Positions 5,824 to 19,731 of a DNA stretch of 64,000 nt are shown one piece after another. Position 1 is the first letter of the stretch. The number at the start of each line of letters is the position of its first letter. Where the stretch lies: contig CALVTO010000001.1 of NCBI GenBank assembly GCA_944362705.1, forward strand, positions 147,623 to 211,622, given 5' to 3'. The stretch comes from an uncultured Clostridia bacterium (lineage in GTDB: Bacteria; Bacillota; Clostridia; Christensenellales; UBA1242). The translations under genes were made by a program, and so were the position numbers. The notes beneath the pieces were generated by a model that saw nothing but the letters and a program-made list of their open reading frames with translations, was not told the DNA's origin and did no database searches.

Positions 5824-6840
5824 ATGGAAAAAATTCGTTTGGTTTCGGGGTTAAGACCAACGGGTAAATTGCATGTGGGGCACTATGTTGGGGCGTTGCA
5901 AAACTTGGTGGCGTTTCAAGAAAGTGGAAAATATGATTCTTTTATTTTTATTGCTGACGTGCAAGCCTTTACCGATAATGCCGACAACCCTGAAAAAATT
6001 AAACATAGTGTGGATGATTTAATGCTTGATCTTTTGGCTTGCGGGTTAGATCCAGAAAAAACCACTTTGTTTGTGCAAAGTCAAATACCACAACTTCATG
6101 AATTATGTATGTATTACATGAACTTGGTAACGCTTTCACGCCTAGAACGTAACCCTACCGTAAAAACAGAACTGAAAGAACGCGGGTTTGGTAAAAGTGT
6201 ACCCGTTGGTTTTTTGGTGTATCCAATTAGTCAGGCGGCAGATATTACAGCGTTTAAAGCAAAAGTGGTTCCTTGCGGGGAAGACCAGTTACCATTATTA
6301 GAGCAAGCACGTGAAATTGTACGTGCATTTAACAAAACGTATGGTGAAACTTTAGTAGAAGCAGATGCTCTTTTAGCAAAAGAAAAAACAGCAAGAAGGC
6401 TTATGGGTACCGACGGTAACGCAAAAATGAGCAAAAGTTTAGGCAACTGTATTTATCTTTCCGATGACGATGAAACCATTCGCAAAGCGGTTATGGGCAT
6501 GTATACCGACCCTGACCATATTCATGTAAACGACCCTGGTAAAATAGAAGGGAATGTGGTGTTTGCTTATTTAGATGTATTTGCACCAAACAAACAAGAA
6601 GTGGAGGAGATGAAGGCACATTACCAACGCGGTGGGTTAGGCGATGTTGTGGTAAAAAAATATTTGGTAAAAGTATTACAAGATTTTATTCGTCCTATTC
6701 GCGAACGCAGAGAAGCTTTACAAAAAAACATGGCTTATGTGCGTGATGTGTTTAAAAAGGGTAGTTTGCGCGCGCAACAAGTGGCCGAACAAACATTAAA
6801 AAAAGTACGTAAAAGTATGCAAATAGAGTATTTTAACTAA
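5824..6840 (+). CDS. trpS: Tryptophan--tRNA ligase, paralogue 1 (HVGH / KMSKS type)
   Basis: 338 aa class I aaRS: SGLRPTGKLHVGHYVGAL, GEDQLPLLEQAREIV, KMSKSLGN. AAGGAG SD. Only about 90 nt of upstream leader, so no T-box is possible. Confidence 0.9.
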   Translation: MEKIRLVSGLRPTGKLHVGHYVGALQNLVAFQESGKYDSFIFIADVQAFTDNADNPEKIKHSVDDLMLDLLACGLDPEKTTLFVQSQIPQLHELCMYYMNLVTLSRLERNPTVKTELKERGFGKSVPVGFLVYPISQAADITAFKAKVVPCGEDQLPLLEQAREIVRAFNKTYGETLVEADALLAKEKTARRLMGTDGNAKMSKSLGNCIYLSDDDETIRKAVMGMYTDPDHIHVNDPGKIEGNVVFAYLDVFAPNKQEVEEMKAHYQRGGLGDVVVKKYLVKVLQDFIRPIRERREALQKNMAYVRDVFKKGSLRAQQVAEQTLKKVRKSMQIEYFN

Positions 6841-9581: not shown

Positions 9582-11105
<1,524 letters not shown>

Positions 11106-11241
11106 AAAGGAGTAGCAGATTGCTACTTTTGTCGACGTACAATGTTTTTCATTGTATGAAATTGTTTACCTTTTGGGTAAATGTTCTCTTGTATATACAG
11201 TAAACATATACAAGTTATGATAAAAGGATATAACACACTAC

Positions 11242-11262
11242 ATCAAATATTAAGTTAAGGAA
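11242..11262 (+). other. 3' strand of the 16S processing stem
   Basis: atcaaatattaagttaaggaa is complementary to 9439-9462. Confidence 0.75.
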
Positions 11263-11270
11263 TGAAGAAA

Positions 11271-11300
11271 AACGAAGTGTACCGACACTTCGTTTTTTTT
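11271..11300 (+). terminator. Rho-independent terminator directly after the 16S processing stem
   Basis: aacgaagtgt-accg-acacttcgtt (10-bp perfect stem) followed by T8. Confidence 0.85.
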
Positions 11301-11395
11301 GTTGTGTTTATGTTTATATTTTTGTTTATGTTTTGTTTGGCAATGTGTGGTATATATTTTACTGTTTGCCTTGCTTTGTTAGAAACGTGTAAAAT

Positions 11396-11420
11396 AAAAG
11401 CGCCTAAAATAGGCGCTTTT
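11396..11420. terminator. Bidirectional hairpin at the 3' end of the GNAT gene
   Basis: aaaagcgcct-aaaat-aggcgctttt. Confidence 0.65.
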
Positions 11421-12150
11421 ATTTTACACGTTCGTTGTTCGTTTCCTCGGTTGTAAAAATGTTTGCCGTGTGTGCTTTGATTTGTTTGGTTGACGTACGT
11501 TTTTGTATGGATTGTATTTCAGGTGGCAAATTTACATGAAACGGATTGTATATTTTTATATTTTCACTAAGTGTGGTTGCAGATAATTCTTTTAATGTTT
11601 TATGATAAAGCTCTTTTATGGTAGGGGAGCGGAAATTTCCGTATAGCTCTTTTCCTACAAGGTCTTCTTCGCGGAATACGCGAATGTGTAGCCCGTGTTT
11701 GCCGTAAAAATTTTGTAAATAAGATACATTGCGAGGATTATTGGGCTGTAAAAAACCATGTGGCTGAAATATACTTTTTATAGAAACGCACCCAAAATCT
11801 ATTGCTCTTTTTTGCATTAGCGATATAAGTGCGTGCCCTAAACCATGGTTTTTATATGCTTCATTTACAGTTAAAATGGATAATGCCATGGCATGTAGGT
11901 TGCTCTCTGTTGGGTTTGTTGTAATTTGTGCGCTTATATTTCCAATGGGTTGAAATCTATGTTTATATGACGGATTATATGTATACGCAACAATATCGAT
12001 AGCATGTGTATCGGCATTATAATTTTGACAAATTTCTTTTAATACTAAAAACTCGTTATAGCGTGAAAAGAAAAGGTAGCAAGTATGGTTTTGGGCTTGC
12101 TCTTGTGCATATGTTAATAAATTCGTTCTACTTTGTTGGTTGTCTATCAT
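11419..12150 (-). CDS. GNAT-family acetyltransferase-like protein (243 aa)
   Basis: Acetyl-CoA motif-A-like LTVNEAYKNHGLGHALISLMQKRA (Q/R-x-x-G-x-G/A). The rest is unrecognised. Confidence 0.55.
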   Translation of the reverse strand: MIDNQQSRTNLLTYAQEQAQNHTCYLFFSRYNEFLVLKEICQNYNADTHAIDIVAYTYNPSYKHRFQPIGNISAQITTNPTESNLHAMALSILTVNEAYKNHGLGHALISLMQKRAIDFGCVSIKSIFQPHGFLQPNNPRNVSYLQNFYGKHGLHIRVFREEDLVGKELYGNFRSPTIKELYHKTLKELSATTLSENIKIYNPFHVNLPPEIQSIQKRTSTKQIKAHTANIFTTEETNNERVK

Positions 12151-12373
12151 ATTCTATTTTCCGAAAAAGCCTTGAAGGATGAGGCTTGTTTGCCTGTTGC
12201 GTCGCGCCACGTTATATCTATGTGTTTTTTAAATAACGTTTCGTACATTTGTTTCATATATATAGTATAAGTTGTGTGAGGCAGGGTGTCAATATGCTTT
12301 TTTGTTTTTTTTGTTATGTGCATTTGGGTAAATAAAAAAAAAGACGCATACGCGCCTTTTTTATTTGTTGAAA

Positions 12374-12577
12374 TTATTTAATGCCTACTGTGGCTTTAAA
12401 ACCATTCCATAATTCTACAAAGAATTCTTTAAAAGAACCCCAGAAACCGTTTGCTTCAATGCTTGCTTTAATTTGATCAATACCGCCAGCGGCAAACAAG
12501 TAATATAGCGCTAGGACAATGGCTGCAATGGAAATAATCCAACATAATAGTTTTAAAATTCCTTTGAAGACTGCCAT
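12374..12577 (-). CDS. Small single-pass membrane protein (67 aa)
   Basis: MAVFKGILKLLCWIISIAAIVLALYYLF... with a GGGAGG SD upstream of ATG 12577. The ORF-track start 12619 lacks an SD. Confidence 0.55.
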   Translation of the reverse strand: MAVFKGILKLLCWIISIAAIVLALYYLFAAGGIDQIKASIEANGFWGSFKEFFVELWNGFKATVGIK

Positions 12578-12673
12578 AGTTTTTTCCTCCCTGTTCCTTT
12601 CTTGATGATAGTATAGCATATTTATTTCTATTTGTGAATATTTTCTGCCAAAATTTTTTAAAAAAAGCCCTTT

Positions 12674-13540
12674 TTAAAAAGGGCGCACAGATAAAAGACT
12701 TTTCTTGCGGTGCATGCTTTTATGTTTTCTATAAAAACCTGTGCGAATAACCGCTTTTTGAAAACCCCAACGATTGACAAAGCTTAAGGTGTTTGCTGGT
12801 GGTTTTACGTGTGTGGCTTTGTAATGCGTATCGACTCTTGATGTTTTTATATCGGTAGGGTATGGGTTTGTGAGTATAATTTCTGGAATAACAAGCCTTG
12901 TGATACGCCCTTCTTTTTTCTTTTTTGGCGCTTTTTGCATCATACGGCGAACGGGCACTTGTTTCGTTAAGGTTGTTCCTTGCGTTGTTGTATCTATTTG
13001 TGGTTGCTGCTGTTGTAAATATACTTGCGTTGCGTCTTTTTCTGCTTGTGATAGTTTTGTTAAAAACAATGCATTACGTTTCATGGCGCGATATCTTTGC
13101 TCAAATGATATGATTTCTTTATCGGCGTTTAAATGTTGAATAATGTTGTGTAAACGTGTAATGGTTTTGTTGCGTTCTTCTGAACCAAAATTGTAAGAAA
13201 GCAATGGTAAAGAATGGGGAGTAATATAATCGATATAACTATTGCGCTTTCTTTTTTTATATTTTATACCTAAGGTTCTAGGTGCGCGCGCGTATATTTC
13301 CATATATAAATAAATATCGCTTGGTTTATAGCTTGCAAAAAAACATTCAAGATACGCATCAAATAGTGGGGTGTAAGATTGTAATTCGGTAAAATAATAT
13401 TGTAAATACTGGTCCGTTAGCTTGGATACAATATGCGACTTTGCGTGCATATGGCAAGCGCCGTCAATCATAATATTTGCTAGCGCCAATTTTTCTACAC
13501 TTTGTAGCTCTACTTTTTTGTTTGTTGTATTAGGTTGCAT
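12674..13540 (-). CDS. Hypothetical protein (288 aa) with a very basic C-terminal third
   Basis: AAGGAGG SD before ATG 13540 (MQPNTTNKK...). No family recognised. Confidence 0.55.
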   Translation of the reverse strand: MQPNTTNKKVELQSVEKLALANIMIDGACHMHAKSHIVSKLTDQYLQYYFTELQSYTPLFDAYLECFFASYKPSDIYLYMEIYARAPRTLGIKYKKRKRNSYIDYITPHSLPLLSYNFGSEERNKTITRLHNIIQHLNADKEIISFEQRYRAMKRNALFLTKLSQAEKDATQVYLQQQQPQIDTTTQGTTLTKQVPVRRMMQKAPKKKKEGRITRLVIPEIILTNPYPTDIKTSRVDTHYKATHVKPPANTLSFVNRWGFQKAVIRTGFYRKHKSMHRKKSLLSVRPF

Positions 13541-13612
13541 ATTGCCTCCTTGGCTGTATTTCTTATAATGTAGCATAATTAAAAAATTTTAGCAAATATT
13601 TTATAAAATGTA

Positions 13613-13641
13613 TTGACAACCTCTTTTTTTTCGTGTATTAT
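13613..13641 (+). promoter_or_regulatory. 23S promoter P1
   Basis: TTGACA (13613-13618), 17 nt, TATTAT (13636-13641). A stem-loop at 13648-13673 follows. Confidence 0.65.
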
Positions 13642-13724
13642 GTGTTTGTTCTTAGCCACCCGTGGTTAGGAACAGCCAAAAAAAATATAATTTTAAAAAT
13701 TTTTAAAAAACTTTTAAAAATCTG

Positions 13725-13753
13725 TTGACATTATATTTTGTATTTGGTATTAT
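13725..13753 (+). promoter_or_regulatory. 23S promoter P2 (extended -10) with an A/T-rich UP-like tract
   Basis: TTGACA (13725-13730), 17 nt ending in TGg, TATTAT (13748-13753). A stem-loop at 13760-13777 follows. Confidence 0.7.
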
Positions 13754-13922
13754 GAGAGAGTTCCGCTGATGTGGAACCACAACTTAATAGATTTGCTTTA
13801 TGCAATACCAAGTATTCATTTTAGTAAATACCTCTGGGTAAGTTCATGATACGTGTTCGTGTGGTTTTATACGTAAACGTATATGCACTTACCATTTTTA
13901 TTGCAAAAAATCTGTTAAGCAT

Positions 13923-13946
13923 CGCACATTGACAACTGCATATTAC
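13923..13946 (+). other. 5' strand of the 23S processing stem
   Basis: cgcacattgacaactgcatattac pairs over 24 bp (one G-U) with 17211-17234. Confidence 0.8.
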
Positions 13947-14179
13947 ATAATCATACAAAGCAATTTGTATGACGAGAATCAGAGTTAAAATCAAGTAATA
14001 TTTTACATGGTGTAATACGTATGAATAACAATTAAGCTAAAAACAACCGTTTTTAACTGTTATATATATAACAATTACGCTGAGCAAAATTAACAAGAAA
14101 ACAAAATGCATATAGGCACCGTTTACTTATAGAGTAAACAATTTAAGTACTTTTGTACTTGTAAGAATGCGACGTATAC

Positions 14180-17098
<2,919 letters not shown>

Positions 17099-17913: not shown

Positions 17914-18909
17914 TTATGATTGCAGGCCTAAGGCTAGTTTGGCACGTTGCAGCGTTTCTTGTGCGGTGGGTTGTGCTCTTTTCGCGCCATCGGCCAATAT
18001 GCTATCTAACAAGGTTTTATTATTAAACTTGTGAAACCTTTGTTGAATGTTTGTTAGTAAAGTGCTAACAACTTCACAAACTTCTTTTTTAAACTCGCCA
18101 TAGCCTTTGCCTTTATATCGGTTTTCGATGCTTTCAAAACTTTCGTTGGTTATTTTTGAAAGTATGCTCATTAAATTGGAAATGCCCGGTTGGTTTTCTT
18201 CGTCAAAATGCACGCAAGATAGTGTATCGGTTTTGGCTTGCATAATTTTCTTTTTTACAGTTTCTATATCGTCCATTAAAAAAATGGTGCCTTTATTGTT
18301 GCTGTTATCGGACTTATTCATTTTTTCTAGTGGGTTTTGCAGATTTAAAATTTTGTTTCCCACAGGGGCTATATATACATCTGGCATAACAAAGGTGTTG
18401 CCGTAGCGTTTATTAAAGCGCTCTGCTAAATCTCGGGTGAGTTCTACGTGTTGTTGCTGGTCTTTACCCACAGGCACAATACTTGTATTATACAATAAAA
18501 TATCAGCAACCATAAGTGTAGGGTATACAAATAGGCCGGTATTTACGCCTTCTTTTGTTTGTTGCATGGACTTATACTTAAATTGTGTCATGCGACTTAG
18601 TTCGCCCATTTTTGTTTGAAAGGTCATAATAAACCCAAGTGTACCATGTTCTAGCACATCGCTTTGTTTAAAGACCATAGTTTTGGTTGGGTCTACGCCA
18701 CAAGCTAAATACATGGCAACGCAATTATATATGGCTTCTTGCAAGGCTTGAGGTTTTTTTGGGGAAGTAATGGCATGTAAATCTGCAATAAAAATATAAC
18801 TTATATAATCTTCTTGTTTATCTACAAAATTTTTAATGGCGCCTAAATAATTTCCTAGCGTTAAGTTCCCGCTGGGACGTACGCCTGTTAACATAACTTT
18901 TTTATTCAT
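17914..18909 (-). CDS. trpS: Tryptophan--tRNA ligase, paralogue 2 (E. coli/Bacillus-like; TLGN / KMNKS)
   Basis: MNKKVMLTGVRPSGNLTLGNYLGAI, GELSRMTQFK, VPVGKDQQQHVELTRD, KMNKS. AGGAGA SD before ATG 18909. The ORF-track extension to 19083 is the leader RNA read in another frame. Confidence 0.9.
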   Translation of the reverse strand: MNKKVMLTGVRPSGNLTLGNYLGAIKNFVDKQEDYISYIFIADLHAITSPKKPQALQEAIYNCVAMYLACGVDPTKTMVFKQSDVLEHGTLGFIMTFQTKMGELSRMTQFKYKSMQQTKEGVNTGLFVYPTLMVADILLYNTSIVPVGKDQQQHVELTRDLAERFNKRYGNTFVMPDVYIAPVGNKILNLQNPLEKMNKSDNSNNKGTIFLMDDIETVKKKIMQAKTDTLSCVHFDEENQPGISNLMSILSKITNESFESIENRYKGKGYGEFKKEVCEVVSTLLTNIQQRFHKFNNKTLLDSILADGAKRAQPTAQETLQRAKLALGLQS

Positions 18910-18925
18910 AATGATATTTTCTCCT

Positions 18926-18975
18926 AAAAAAAATAAAAATCCCGTTGTGTGTTTACGACAAAACATACCAACGGG
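18926..18975 (-). terminator. Attenuator terminator in the trpS-2 leader
   Basis: Minus strand: cccgttggtatgttt...aaacacacaacggg followed by atttttatttttttt, 16 nt before the trpS-2 SD. Confidence 0.75.
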
Positions 18976-19067
18976 AAACGGAAAAGTATATAAAGTTATA
19001 TTCCATGCATATGTTTTGTGACGCAAGAAAAAGCATTCACAAAACATAATATTTTGCGAACGCAATT

Positions 19068-19100
19068 TTACAAACGCCACCACATATTACGATGGAACAT
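19068..19100 (-). CDS. Leader peptide MFHRNMWWRL with tandem Trp codons
   Basis: Minus strand: AAGGAG, 8 nt, then ATG TTC CAT CGT AAT ATG TGG TGG CGT TTG TAA. It lies about 20 nt downstream of the predicted transcription start site (TSS). Confidence 0.6.
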   Translation of the reverse strand: MFHRNMWWRL

Positions 19101-19128
19101 ATAGTTATCTCCTTTTAAAATTTTTTAT

Positions 19129-19157
19129 AGTATAAACAACTCTTTTTGTGTTGTCAA
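19129..19157 (-). promoter_or_regulatory. Sigma-A promoter of the trpS-2 leader
   Basis: Minus strand: TTGACA (19157-19152), 17 nt, TATACT (19134-19129). Confidence 0.65.
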
Positions 19158-19219
19158 TAGTTTGTTTTAACAAGGTGTGTGCAACGTTATAAAAAATTGT
19201 ATATTTTTTTAGATACCTA

Positions 19220-19248
19220 TTGAAACTCATGTTTTACTGTGGTATACT
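19220..19248 (+). promoter_or_regulatory. Sigma-A promoter (extended -10)
   Basis: TTGAAA (19220-19225), 17 nt ending in TGg, TATACT (19243-19248). Confidence 0.6.
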
Positions 19249-19296
19249 TTACGTATGTTTATTTTAACGTTTTTATACGTTTTTTAGGAGGAAATT

Positions 19297-19731
19297 ATGG
19301 TACAATATTCAAGAAAATCAAATAGCGAAATGATGGCTGCATATCGCAATATAGACGTGTATGGAGAAGGGAATGCACTTGCAAAGAAAAATAAAGCAGA
19401 AGAATTTTTATATAAAAAAGAACATGTACAAAAACCAATAAAATATGCTGGTTTGAATTATGCAGAAAAAGCAGTTCAACAACAACAAGATGCTGCAAAA
19501 AGAAGAGAACAAGTTATTGAAAAATGGGTTACTAAAATTACACGTGTTTCTGAACGTGGTGGCAAAGTAGTTGCTCCAAATGAACCAGCAAAAAGTTTGG
19601 AAGAATTATATTTAGATGGTGAAGTTATGCATTTAGGCGATGCAATGGGTACCGTATGTGATGGTAAATATGTTACTGTAGATTTTAAAGATTTACCAAC
19701 TGAATGGCAAGAAGAAGGCCGTTCTAGATAA
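19297..19731 (+). CDS. Hypothetical protein (144 aa)
   Basis: Strong AGGAGG SD. No family recognised. Confidence 0.6.
   Translation: MVQYSRKSNSEMMAAYRNIDVYGEGNALAKKNKAEEFLYKKEHVQKPIKYAGLNYAEKAVQQQQDAAKRREQVIEKWVTKITRVSERGGKVVAPNEPAKSLEELYLDGEVMHLGDAMGTVCDGKYVTVDFKDLPTEWQEEGRSR

Follow-up and report, generated by a model that had tools for sequence, protein, structure and literature searches.

Firmicutes are the textbook case of bacteria in which aminoacyl-tRNA synthetase (aaRS) genes and amino-acid genes are controlled by T-boxes, riboswitches or RNA-binding proteins. A comparative study from 2005 found no Firmicute aaRS gene under classical attenuation, and predicted attenuators upstream of trpS in Streptomyces (PMC1262725). 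The only later addition to this picture is a His leader peptide predicted in bacilli before hisS paralogs and hisZ (Naville & Gautheret 2010, PMC2965389), and leaders that replace T-boxes in Firmicutes are deemed notable there. Here we describe the leader of a tryptophanyl-tRNA synthetase (TrpRS) gene, trpS, on the minus strand of a 64-kb stretch of DNA (64,000 nucleotides) from an uncultured Clostridia bacterium; the whole of this stretch is called the window below. An earlier note had read this leader as a Trp leader-peptide attenuator. That reading is supported by conservation, covariation, spacing, the gene context (trpB and tRNA-Trp) and ribosome-masked folding, and we put at roughly 0.78 the probability that the leader is a ribosome-mediated leader-peptide transcription attenuator, sensing charged tRNA-Trp and controlling a trpS of the canonical type. 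Found together at the locus were an open reading frame (ORF) with a Shine-Dalgarno sequence (SD), a run of Trp codons, an intrinsic terminator, a conserved antiterminator and, in silico, switching that depends on ribosome position. The parts of the leader, roughly in the order of transcription, are the following.

19157-19152 and 19134-19129, minus strand: sigma-70-type promoter TTGACA-17 nt-TATACT (11/12 match, the best in the region)
19114-19109, minus strand: AAGGAG, SD of the leader ORF, 8 nt before its ATG (read from the sequence)
19101-19074, minus strand: segment 0, the leader-ORF RNA including UGG UGG CGU, predicted to pair with 19024-18997 if ribosome-free
19100-19068, minus strand: leader ORF of 10 codons, MFHRNMWWRL, with stop codon TAA (read from the sequence)
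19082-19077, minus strand: tandem Trp codons TGG TGG (read from the sequence)
19063-19033, minus strand: hairpin 1:A, 14 bp, -14.7 kcal/mol, holding decoy segment A (terminator-like in the scan; present in the minimum free energy fold)
19048-19037, minus strand: segment A, UAUGUUUUGUGA, found through direct and inverted repeats; its partner is segment 1 or B
19032-19028, minus strand: conserved U-run behind hairpin 1:A, a possible pause site
19021-19010, minus strand: segment B, UCACAAAACAUA (also written ACAAAACAUA), found through inverted repeats; common partner of A, C and the leader ORF (with flanks)
19006-19003, minus strand: AUGG extension of the antiterminator, pairing with CCGU at 18974-18971 (5' arm of the terminator) in the ribosome-masked minimum free energy fold
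18976-18922, minus strand: intrinsic terminator with a GC-rich stem of 8 bp (18976-18969 with 18947-18940), -15.6 kcal/mol
18967-18958, minus strand: segment C, UAUGUUUUGU, inside the terminator hairpin, found through an inverted repeat; antiterminator with B
18925-18921, minus strand: AGGAG, SD of trpS, before the trpS ATG at 18909

Promoter, leader SD and ORF were found as the earlier note had described them, and the codons of the ORF read ATG TTC CAT CGT AAT ATG TGG TGG CGT TTG TAA on the minus strand. Hairpin 1:A begins 4 nt past the stop codon, and UUUUU comes directly after it. The repeat finder returned A:B as a perfect inverted repeat where the note had placed it, with 12 bp (19048-19037 with 19021-19010) and not 11, and B:C as a perfect inverted repeat of 10 bp (19019-19010 with 18967-18958) and not 9. 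It also returned A and C as a 10-nt direct repeat, the first 10 nt of A being the same as C. Segment C does lie inside the terminator hairpin, but B:C alone is confined to the terminator loop; the antiterminator proper also takes in the AUGG:CCGU pairing. The terminator stands ahead of the trpS SD, as claimed; its stem is followed by TTTTTATTTTTTTT, with a U-run at 18939-18922. In the minimum free energy fold of the leader, segment 0 pairs over 25 bp with B and the 3' flank of B (19024-18997), and in this off state the AUGG bases (19006-19003) are paired with the leader ORF instead. Energies in the window were -16.7 kcal/mol for the A:B hairpin, -14.9 kcal/mol for the B..C hairpin (-16.9 kcal/mol as a duplex) and -26.5 kcal/mol for the duplex of the ORF with B.

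A further pairing proposed earlier, 8 bp between CGUAAUAU and AUAUUAUG (19091-19084 with 19052-19045), had to be dropped: it amounts to -3.9 kcal/mol, had a probability of 0.000 at three transcript lengths, is not conserved and is missing from the RNAalifold consensus. The caveat that it was meant to meet, the distance between the Trp codons and segment A, is answered by two elements that the earlier note had missed, hairpin 1:A and the ORF:B helix, through which the position of the ribosome would be transmitted.

Several features are shared with E. coli trpL (Rfam Trp_leader, RF00513). These are a short leader that is translated and has two Trp codons side by side towards its end, a hairpin just after the ORF, an antiterminator and an intrinsic terminator that exclude each other, and a predicted behaviour in which the untranslated leader terminates and readthrough follows on a stall at the Trp codons alone. 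Unlike trpL, the leader in the window has no sequence or covariance-model similarity to that family (no Rfam match), and its switch has six segments (0, 1, A, B, C and the terminator arms) where trpL has four. In folding models, the ribosome at the stop codon would free decoy A, a 10-nt copy of the terminator-loop segment C, and the RNA of the ORF would itself be an anti-antiterminator. The logic would be that of classical leader-peptide attenuation; with the ORF in that role and the decoy released by the terminating ribosome, the architecture appears distinct. Finally, trpL precedes the full trp operon, whereas the targets here are an aaRS gene, trpB or tRNA-Trp, and the host belongs to a Clostridia lineage.

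With the T-box (RF00230) the predicted switch would have in common its input, tRNA charging, its output, a terminator versus an antiterminator in a leader of ~200 nt, the kind of target gene, and a modular specificity, carried by the specifier codon in T-boxes and by the leader codons here. It differs in having no Stem I, specifier loop or T-box sequence, and its sensor would be the translating ribosome and not direct reading of the tRNA. The claim that no T-box precedes trpS held in all Rfam searches. An Rfam 15 scan of the whole 64-kb window gave rRNA matches alone, with no T-box at gathering score, and a scan of 20 related loci gave tRNAs alone, again with no T-box. A permissive search (E up to 10) of 18700-19400 returned sub-threshold noise, with neither a T-box nor Trp_leader RF00513; the best sub-threshold matches were to unrelated sRNA models (for example RsaOG, 26.9 bits against a gathering score of 50). 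A T-box core (GGGTGGNACC-like) was sought in the leader and not found. For a TRAP-type array the criterion was 9-11 (G/U)AG triplets spaced 2-3 nt apart; the leader has no run of at least five triplets, and three GAG/UAG in 219 nt. By these searches the predicted element is outside Rfam, in a lineage new for such attenuators. The predicted leader is like the bacilli His leader in being a 'regular' leader-peptide attenuator in the place of a T-box before an aaRS-family gene in Firmicutes; it differs in amino acid, lineage (Bacilli there) and sequence, and in the part of PMC2965389 considered here the case for the His leader rests on short ORFs with runs of His codons and similar 5' untranslated regions (5' UTRs), not on a multi-state structure model.

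These searches bear on the idea that a factor acting in trans (uncharged tRNA as in a T-box, a TRAP-like protein or a small ligand) binds the conserved RNA and that the mini-ORF is incidental. The core (CACAAAACAUAUAAAUGGAUU, CCCGUUGGUAUGUUUUG) is indeed conserved very highly for a plain hairpin switch, although high conservation is also expected of a segment with three alternative partners. Rfam gave neither a T-box nor any other family, even at E up to 10, and T-box core and (G/U)AG array are both absent. The ORF has its SD, start and stop in frame in 39/39 leaders (see below) at a fixed distance between codons and hairpin, and variants of the scaffold before other genes keep the scaffold and change the codons. 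We regard such a factor as very unlikely.

To return to the leader-peptide attenuator, relatives were gathered by a genome scan with the TrpS protein as query, which gave ~44 loci with a TrpS 66-84% identical to that of the window. All are from uncultured gut metagenome-assembled genomes (MAGs) labelled Clostridia, Eubacteriales, Candidatus Caccovivens and similar. In 38 of the ~44 loci (TrpS 72-84% identical) a short ORF with adjacent Trp codons stands ~190 nt upstream of trpS, so the conservation of the WW peptide that the earlier note had proposed to check is found. These 38 leaders and that of the window make up alignment A1 (39 leaders); related loci are labelled L001, L029 and so on. The consensus of the peptide at the 38 related loci is MFNSFIWWR[WK], in ORFs of 10-12 codons. 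TGG TGG occurs in all trpS and trpB leaders, with a W.W variant in L029 and L030, and a third W is frequent. The SD and the in-frame leader ORF are kept in 39/39 leaders, and a promoter with at least 10/12 matches stands at a fixed distance (end of the -10 box ~28 nt before the leader ATG) in 37/39. The leaders of A1 also share hairpin 1:A with its U-run, segment B with its flank (CACAAAACAUAUAAAUGGAUU) and the terminator (CCCGUUGGUAUGUUUUG...CAACGGG).

Measured between the first bases of the second Trp codon and of hairpin 1:A, the spacing is 16-17 nt in 34/39 leaders, and the stop codon lies 1-6 nt from the hairpin. In ORFs of 11 codons the former spacing stays constant, the stretch from stop codon to hairpin being correspondingly shorter. 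A spacer of 16-17 nt is to be expected where the front of a ribosome stalled on the Trp codons has to stop just short of hairpin 1:A.

The RNAalifold consensus of A1 contains ORF:B, 1:A and the terminator. For 1:A and the terminator together, 99.4% of the alignment cells are paired and 9 pairs are changed on both sides (0/500 shuffles equal); the terminator by itself is 100% paired in the 39 leaders, with compensatory changes at 5/7 pairs. ORF:B has 95.8% of cells paired and 5 pairs changed on both sides (again 0/500 shuffles equal), and A:B 95.2% and 4 pairs. For B:C the figures are 98.5% and a single pair (C-G to U-A, in three leaders), and with the AAUGG:CCGUU extension 97.4% in the 39 leaders, also with one pair changed on both sides. 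Sliding the partners by 1-3 columns lowered pairing to 24-64% for every helix. Changes in the 5' arm of the terminator are restricted to those that pair with both of its partners (G to A opposite U, C to U opposite G). The variation in A, B and C is small, as would be expected of segments with two or three alternative partners.

One WW leader lies outside this sequence family. At L035:2830-3003, in a record labelled Alphaproteobacteria MAG (TrpS 66% identical), the leader MIFKNLWWQEVIK has a different RNA sequence with repeated palindromic UUGCAA segments, and shows the same three-state behaviour under masking.

A chance mini-ORF ahead of an ordinary, unregulated 5' UTR hairpin is effectively refuted by these comparative data. 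AT-rich genomes are rich in short ORFs and inverted repeats, and the promoter and terminator scans used here also give chance matches on shuffled sequence. However, the 221-nt leader folds to -66.1 kcal/mol against -39.3 ± 4.2 kcal/mol for shuffles (z = -6.3; 0/200 shuffles equal), and the element is kept across at least 38 genomes with diverged TrpS. With a covariance model of the attenuator scaffold (R1), scores in relatives are 100-180 bits, and the 64-kb window contains one copy: with filters off it gave one match and its palindromic mirror on the opposite strand, and a search with the B motif agrees that there is no second copy. The earlier judgement that a WW ORF with an SD is improbable by chance is thus borne out, ORF, SD, promoter and hairpins recurring at the 38 related loci.

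The conservation of the peptide raises another explanation, in which MFNSFIWWR, like TnaC, would act in the exit tunnel and arrest the ribosome on sensing free tryptophan or a different ligand. Conservation is unusually high for a leader peptide, and the MFNSF N-terminus is retained even in variants before other genes. This conservation is at the nucleotide level, however, and is accounted for by the ORF:B pairing with its compensatory changes. Of the first 6 residues of the window's peptide, MFHRNMWWRL, 4 are different, yet the RNA pairing persists in a shifted register, and the variants change codons at the WW position alone. Arrest by abundant Trp would moreover turn on trpS and trpB just when Trp is in good supply, which is physiologically senseless. 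An arrest peptide is therefore very improbable here.

How the attenuator could switch was modelled by folding the leader with a ribosome footprint masked (from 15 nt before to 12 nt after the first base of the A-site codon), with base-pair ensembles computed in ViennaRNA for each ribosome position. With the complete terminator in the transcript, equilibrium folding gave a terminator probability of ~0.99 at every ribosome position. Since full-leader equilibrium folding is uninformative, we used a transcript truncated before the 3' arm of the terminator, which represents the decision point and ends within the terminator loop. The folding of leader and alternative structures that the earlier note had proposed gave three ribosome-dependent states on this transcript. 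Without a ribosome, ORF:B and 1:A were dominant, and the probability of B:C exceeded 0.5 in 2/39 leaders. When either Trp codon occupied the A site, 1:A and B:C were dominant (B:C above 0.5 in 38/39 for the first codon and 37/39 for the second), and the antiterminator was lengthened by AUGG:CCGU into the 5' arm of the terminator. With the stop codon in the A site, A:B was dominant (mean probability 0.84) and B:C exceeded 0.5 in 3/39.

The codon-by-codon profile allowed the antiterminator for stalls between codon 2 and the second Trp codon inclusive; two to three codons further on, and at the stop codon, stalls were not permissive. The Trp codons therefore lie at the 3' edge of the permissive window, and did so for 3' footprint edges of A+9, A+12 and A+15.

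From these states the following mechanism is proposed. Transcription would start from the promoter at 19157-19129, and the 10-codon leader would be translated while RNA polymerase proceeds. Segment B and its flanks would then have three competing partners, the position of the ribosome deciding between them. When Trp-tRNA is low, a ribosome stalled at UGG UGG would cover segment 0 and halt ~4 nt before hairpin 1:A. The hairpin would form and lock decoy A, and free B would take C and the 5' arm of the terminator once these are made, so that the terminator is blocked and trpS transcribed. When Trp is replete, the ribosome at the stop codon would melt the base of 1:A, and the freed segment A would seize B in a hairpin of 12-15 bp; C would be left free, the terminator would form and transcription would end at ~18935. 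With no ribosome, or after its release, the ORF RNA would pair with B and its flank, and the terminator would form again. Stalling, kinetic trapping of the antiterminator, pausing at 1:A and its U-run, and synchrony between ribosome and polymerase are steps that we infer.

Across the family, the U-run behind 1:A is almost unchanged (19032-19028 in the window; columns 93-99 of A1), yet in the pairing scheme it is merely the loop of the A:B hairpin. The pairing model alone leaves it unaccounted for, and a hairpin-dependent pause at this site may keep ribosome and RNA polymerase in step. The U-run could also be given another role, in which 1:A and the U-run (19063-19028) are themselves the regulated terminator or pause, suppressed by a close ribosome as in pyrBI, and A, B and C are secondary. 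In keeping with such a coupling or occlusion attenuator, the scan flags 1:A with UUUUU as terminator-like, the U-run hardly varies and the stop codon is just 1-6 nt from the hairpin. However, it leaves the conserved second terminator, the duplication of A as C and the covarying B:C and ORF:B without explanation. A ribosome stalled at WW would also leave 1:A intact, so that starvation would terminate transcription, which is the wrong sign for trpS, trpB and tRNA-Trp. We consider this arrangement unlikely, though the least so of the alternatives to the B-centred attenuator.

Several points weigh against the attenuator as proposed. The entire case is computational: the hosts are uncultured, and its support consists of sequence, covariation and folding models. 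Equilibrium folding favours the terminator regardless of the ribosome. As the terminator dominates all equilibrium states, antitermination must be kinetic, and co-transcriptional trapping of the antiterminator is required in the model; the classical trp attenuator likewise relies on kinetic antiterminator trapping. The three-way constraint on A, B and C allows little variation and limits the statistical weight for B:C, the covariation of which is one pair in three sequences. Because 1:A and its U-run score as terminator-like, efficient termination there would oppose induction. Bacillota are classed at phylum level as having 'runaway' transcription, in which the polymerase outpaces the ribosomes (PMC13323073), so that synchrony of the two must be assumed, for example through pausing.

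The genes that the leader would control are consistent with a sensor of Trp-tRNA shortage. In the window these are the following, together with the second trpS.

18909-17914, minus strand: attenuated trpS, 331 aa, full-length match to TIGR00233 (349.5 bits, cut-off 176.75)
17900-17863, minus strand: terminator-like hairpin past trpS (terminator scan), end of the transcription unit
5824-6840, plus strand: second trpS paralog, 338 aa, TIGR00233 257.7 bits, in a mnmA-trpS-proS cluster, 34% identical to the attenuated copy

The label trpS-2 given earlier to the attenuated gene fits the presence of this paralog. The closest solved structures of the attenuated TrpRS are ordinary bacterial TrpRS (6dfu, 3prh, 1i6k and others; 316-337 bits), and that of the second TrpRS is 'Tryptophanyl-tRNA synthetase II' (2a4m/1yi8; 359 bits). 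By sequence, then, the attenuated copy appears to be the canonical-type TrpRS and the unregulated paralog TrpRS II-like. Upstream of the trpS at 5824-6840 no leader, Rfam element or R1 match was found. The copy that looks housekeeping by its context (mnmA-trpS-proS) is the TrpRS II-like enzyme. A 389-aa ORF at 17914-19083 on the minus strand, with a GTG at 19083 within the leader and open into trpS, looks artefactual; the true start is the ATG at 18909 with its own SD.

As predicted for Streptomyces, one of two TrpRS paralogs here would be under a leader attenuator with Trp codons and be induced as charging of tRNA-Trp falls. Unlike in Streptomyces, it is here the canonical-type TrpRS that would be attenuated and the TrpRS II-like copy that is unregulated; phylum and GC content are different, the leader sequence is unrelated, and the scaffold here is reused for other genes. 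The attenuation of an auxiliary trpS of S. coelicolor, mentioned in the earlier note, agrees with the prediction of Streptomyces trpS attenuators (PMC1262725) in its general part. The leader described here would share with that system its regulatory input. As for the species itself, a 2010 study by Vecchione & Sello (J Bacteriol 192:3565, as cited in PMC4787780) reportedly deals with the regulation of the auxiliary S. coelicolor TrpRS gene.

Among the relatives, the WW leader precedes trpB-trpS in L032 (1597-3981) and L027 (32-2417), where trpB (TIGR00263, 562 bits) overlaps trpS. The overlap of trpS with the 3' end of a stand-alone trpB is also present in L021 (39-1912), a contig that ends within trpB, so that the leader region lies beyond it; L032 has no adjacent trpA. 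In the metagenome loci L098 and L114 the scaffold precedes trpB. In four loci (L001:4015-4088, L002:4011-4084, L036:4048-4121 and L033:838-911) the next gene after trpS, a few dozen nt away at most and in the same orientation, is a tRNA-Trp(CCA) gene, which is probably co-transcribed with trpS and so under the same attenuator. TrpRS, TrpB and tRNA-Trp make a coherent regulated set for a sensor of Trp-tRNA shortage; the stand-alone TrpB presumably serves indole salvage. The 64-kb window holds no tRNA genes and, by tblastn, no trpB and no M20 gene.

In three loci (L042:1729-3618, L073 and L101:1397-1732) the leader is intact and trpS is broken after about residue 64, resuming at about residue 126. 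The insertion is ~0.9 kb long and holds a 244-aa ORF with a signal-peptide or lipoprotein-like start. These could be pseudogenes, insertions or assembly chimeras.

Also in the window, at 11105-14180, the rRNA operon has an unusually long 16S-23S spacer of ~3 kb without tRNA genes. The spacer holds two minus-strand ORFs, 11419-12150 (243 aa) and 12674-13576 (300 aa), neither with a significant family match, the sole match being a weak, sub-threshold one to GNAT. The operon may be split, or may have received an insertion.

The scaffold was also found before genes of other kinds. The wider family was traced by a pattern scan of metagenomes (A..B..C), look-ups of M20 homologs and R1. The pattern scan gave 55 loci, of which ~15 were genuine family members and the remainder chance matches without leader or terminator. 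R1 scores of the scaffold before other genes and at trp loci were 55-180 bits. The occurrences before other genes are the following.

L110:10100-10264, L119:214-380, L131, L134:2814-2982, L136/L137:2814-2981, L138:2797-2969, L142:2800-2976 and L085:1465-1642: scaffolds before an M20 ArgE/DapE-family deacylase gene, with leaders MFNSFNMWHHK, MFNSFN/VL/MWHW/LHK, MIKLMHHRW, MMYTNMWHHNK, MFNSFVRRHHHI and MFNSFTCWRRRR
L124:1031-1192, minus strand: scaffold before a GNAT acetyltransferase gene, leader MFNLCICLCIK with three Cys codons
L026:2236-2394, minus strand: scaffold before a SLOG cluster4 gene (PF18306), leader MVYSFVLLHHHR with three His codons

The SLOG copy in L026 is a second scaffold, divergent from the adjoining trpS leader. 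With these, the targets comprise at least five types: trpS, trpB-trpS, the M20 ArgE/DapE-family deacylase, GNAT and the SLOG protein. What is conserved in sequence is the MFNSF-type start of the ORF, hairpin 1:A, B, C and the terminator. Between variants, it is only the ribosome-sensitive codons that differ (WW, W-H-x-H, RRHHH, HHH and CxCxC); at the sensing position of the M20 leaders stand Trp, His and Arg codons (MWHHK, WHWHK, WHLHK, HHRW, RRHHHI and CWRRRR). In masked folding most of the distinctive codons fall inside the permissive window, and the stop codon is always outside it. The L085 leader MFNSFTCWRRRR was considered as an arginine sensor for the ArgE-like gene and rejected, as its four Arg codons lie outside the permissive window (probability of B:C 0.38, 0.08, 0 and 0).

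The varied codons of the M20 leaders suggest a modular cassette with swappable regulatory codons. That the trpS leader is one member of a portable attenuator cassette of uncultured gut Clostridia, used as T-boxes are elsewhere in Firmicutes, we hold to be an even bet.

A conserved Trp leader attenuator in gut Clostridia would extend ribosome-mediated attenuation to a new lineage, in a phylum where this type of control is rare. As a decoy-based three-state switch with a strict spacer of 16-17 nt from the sensing codons to the first hairpin, it would be a clean and testable design. It also bears on whether transcription and translation can be coupled in Bacillota, classed as 'runaway' (PMC13323073). 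If the cassette reading is true, specificity evolves through codon swaps on a fixed RNA switch, and ribosome and RNA polymerase would in effect keep pace with each other in such a phylum, perhaps through a pause at the conserved hairpin and U-run. The reuse of the scaffold with different sensing codons would, if confirmed, provide natural examples of modular, reprogrammable attenuators, and would aid the annotation of regulons in uncultured gut bacteria.

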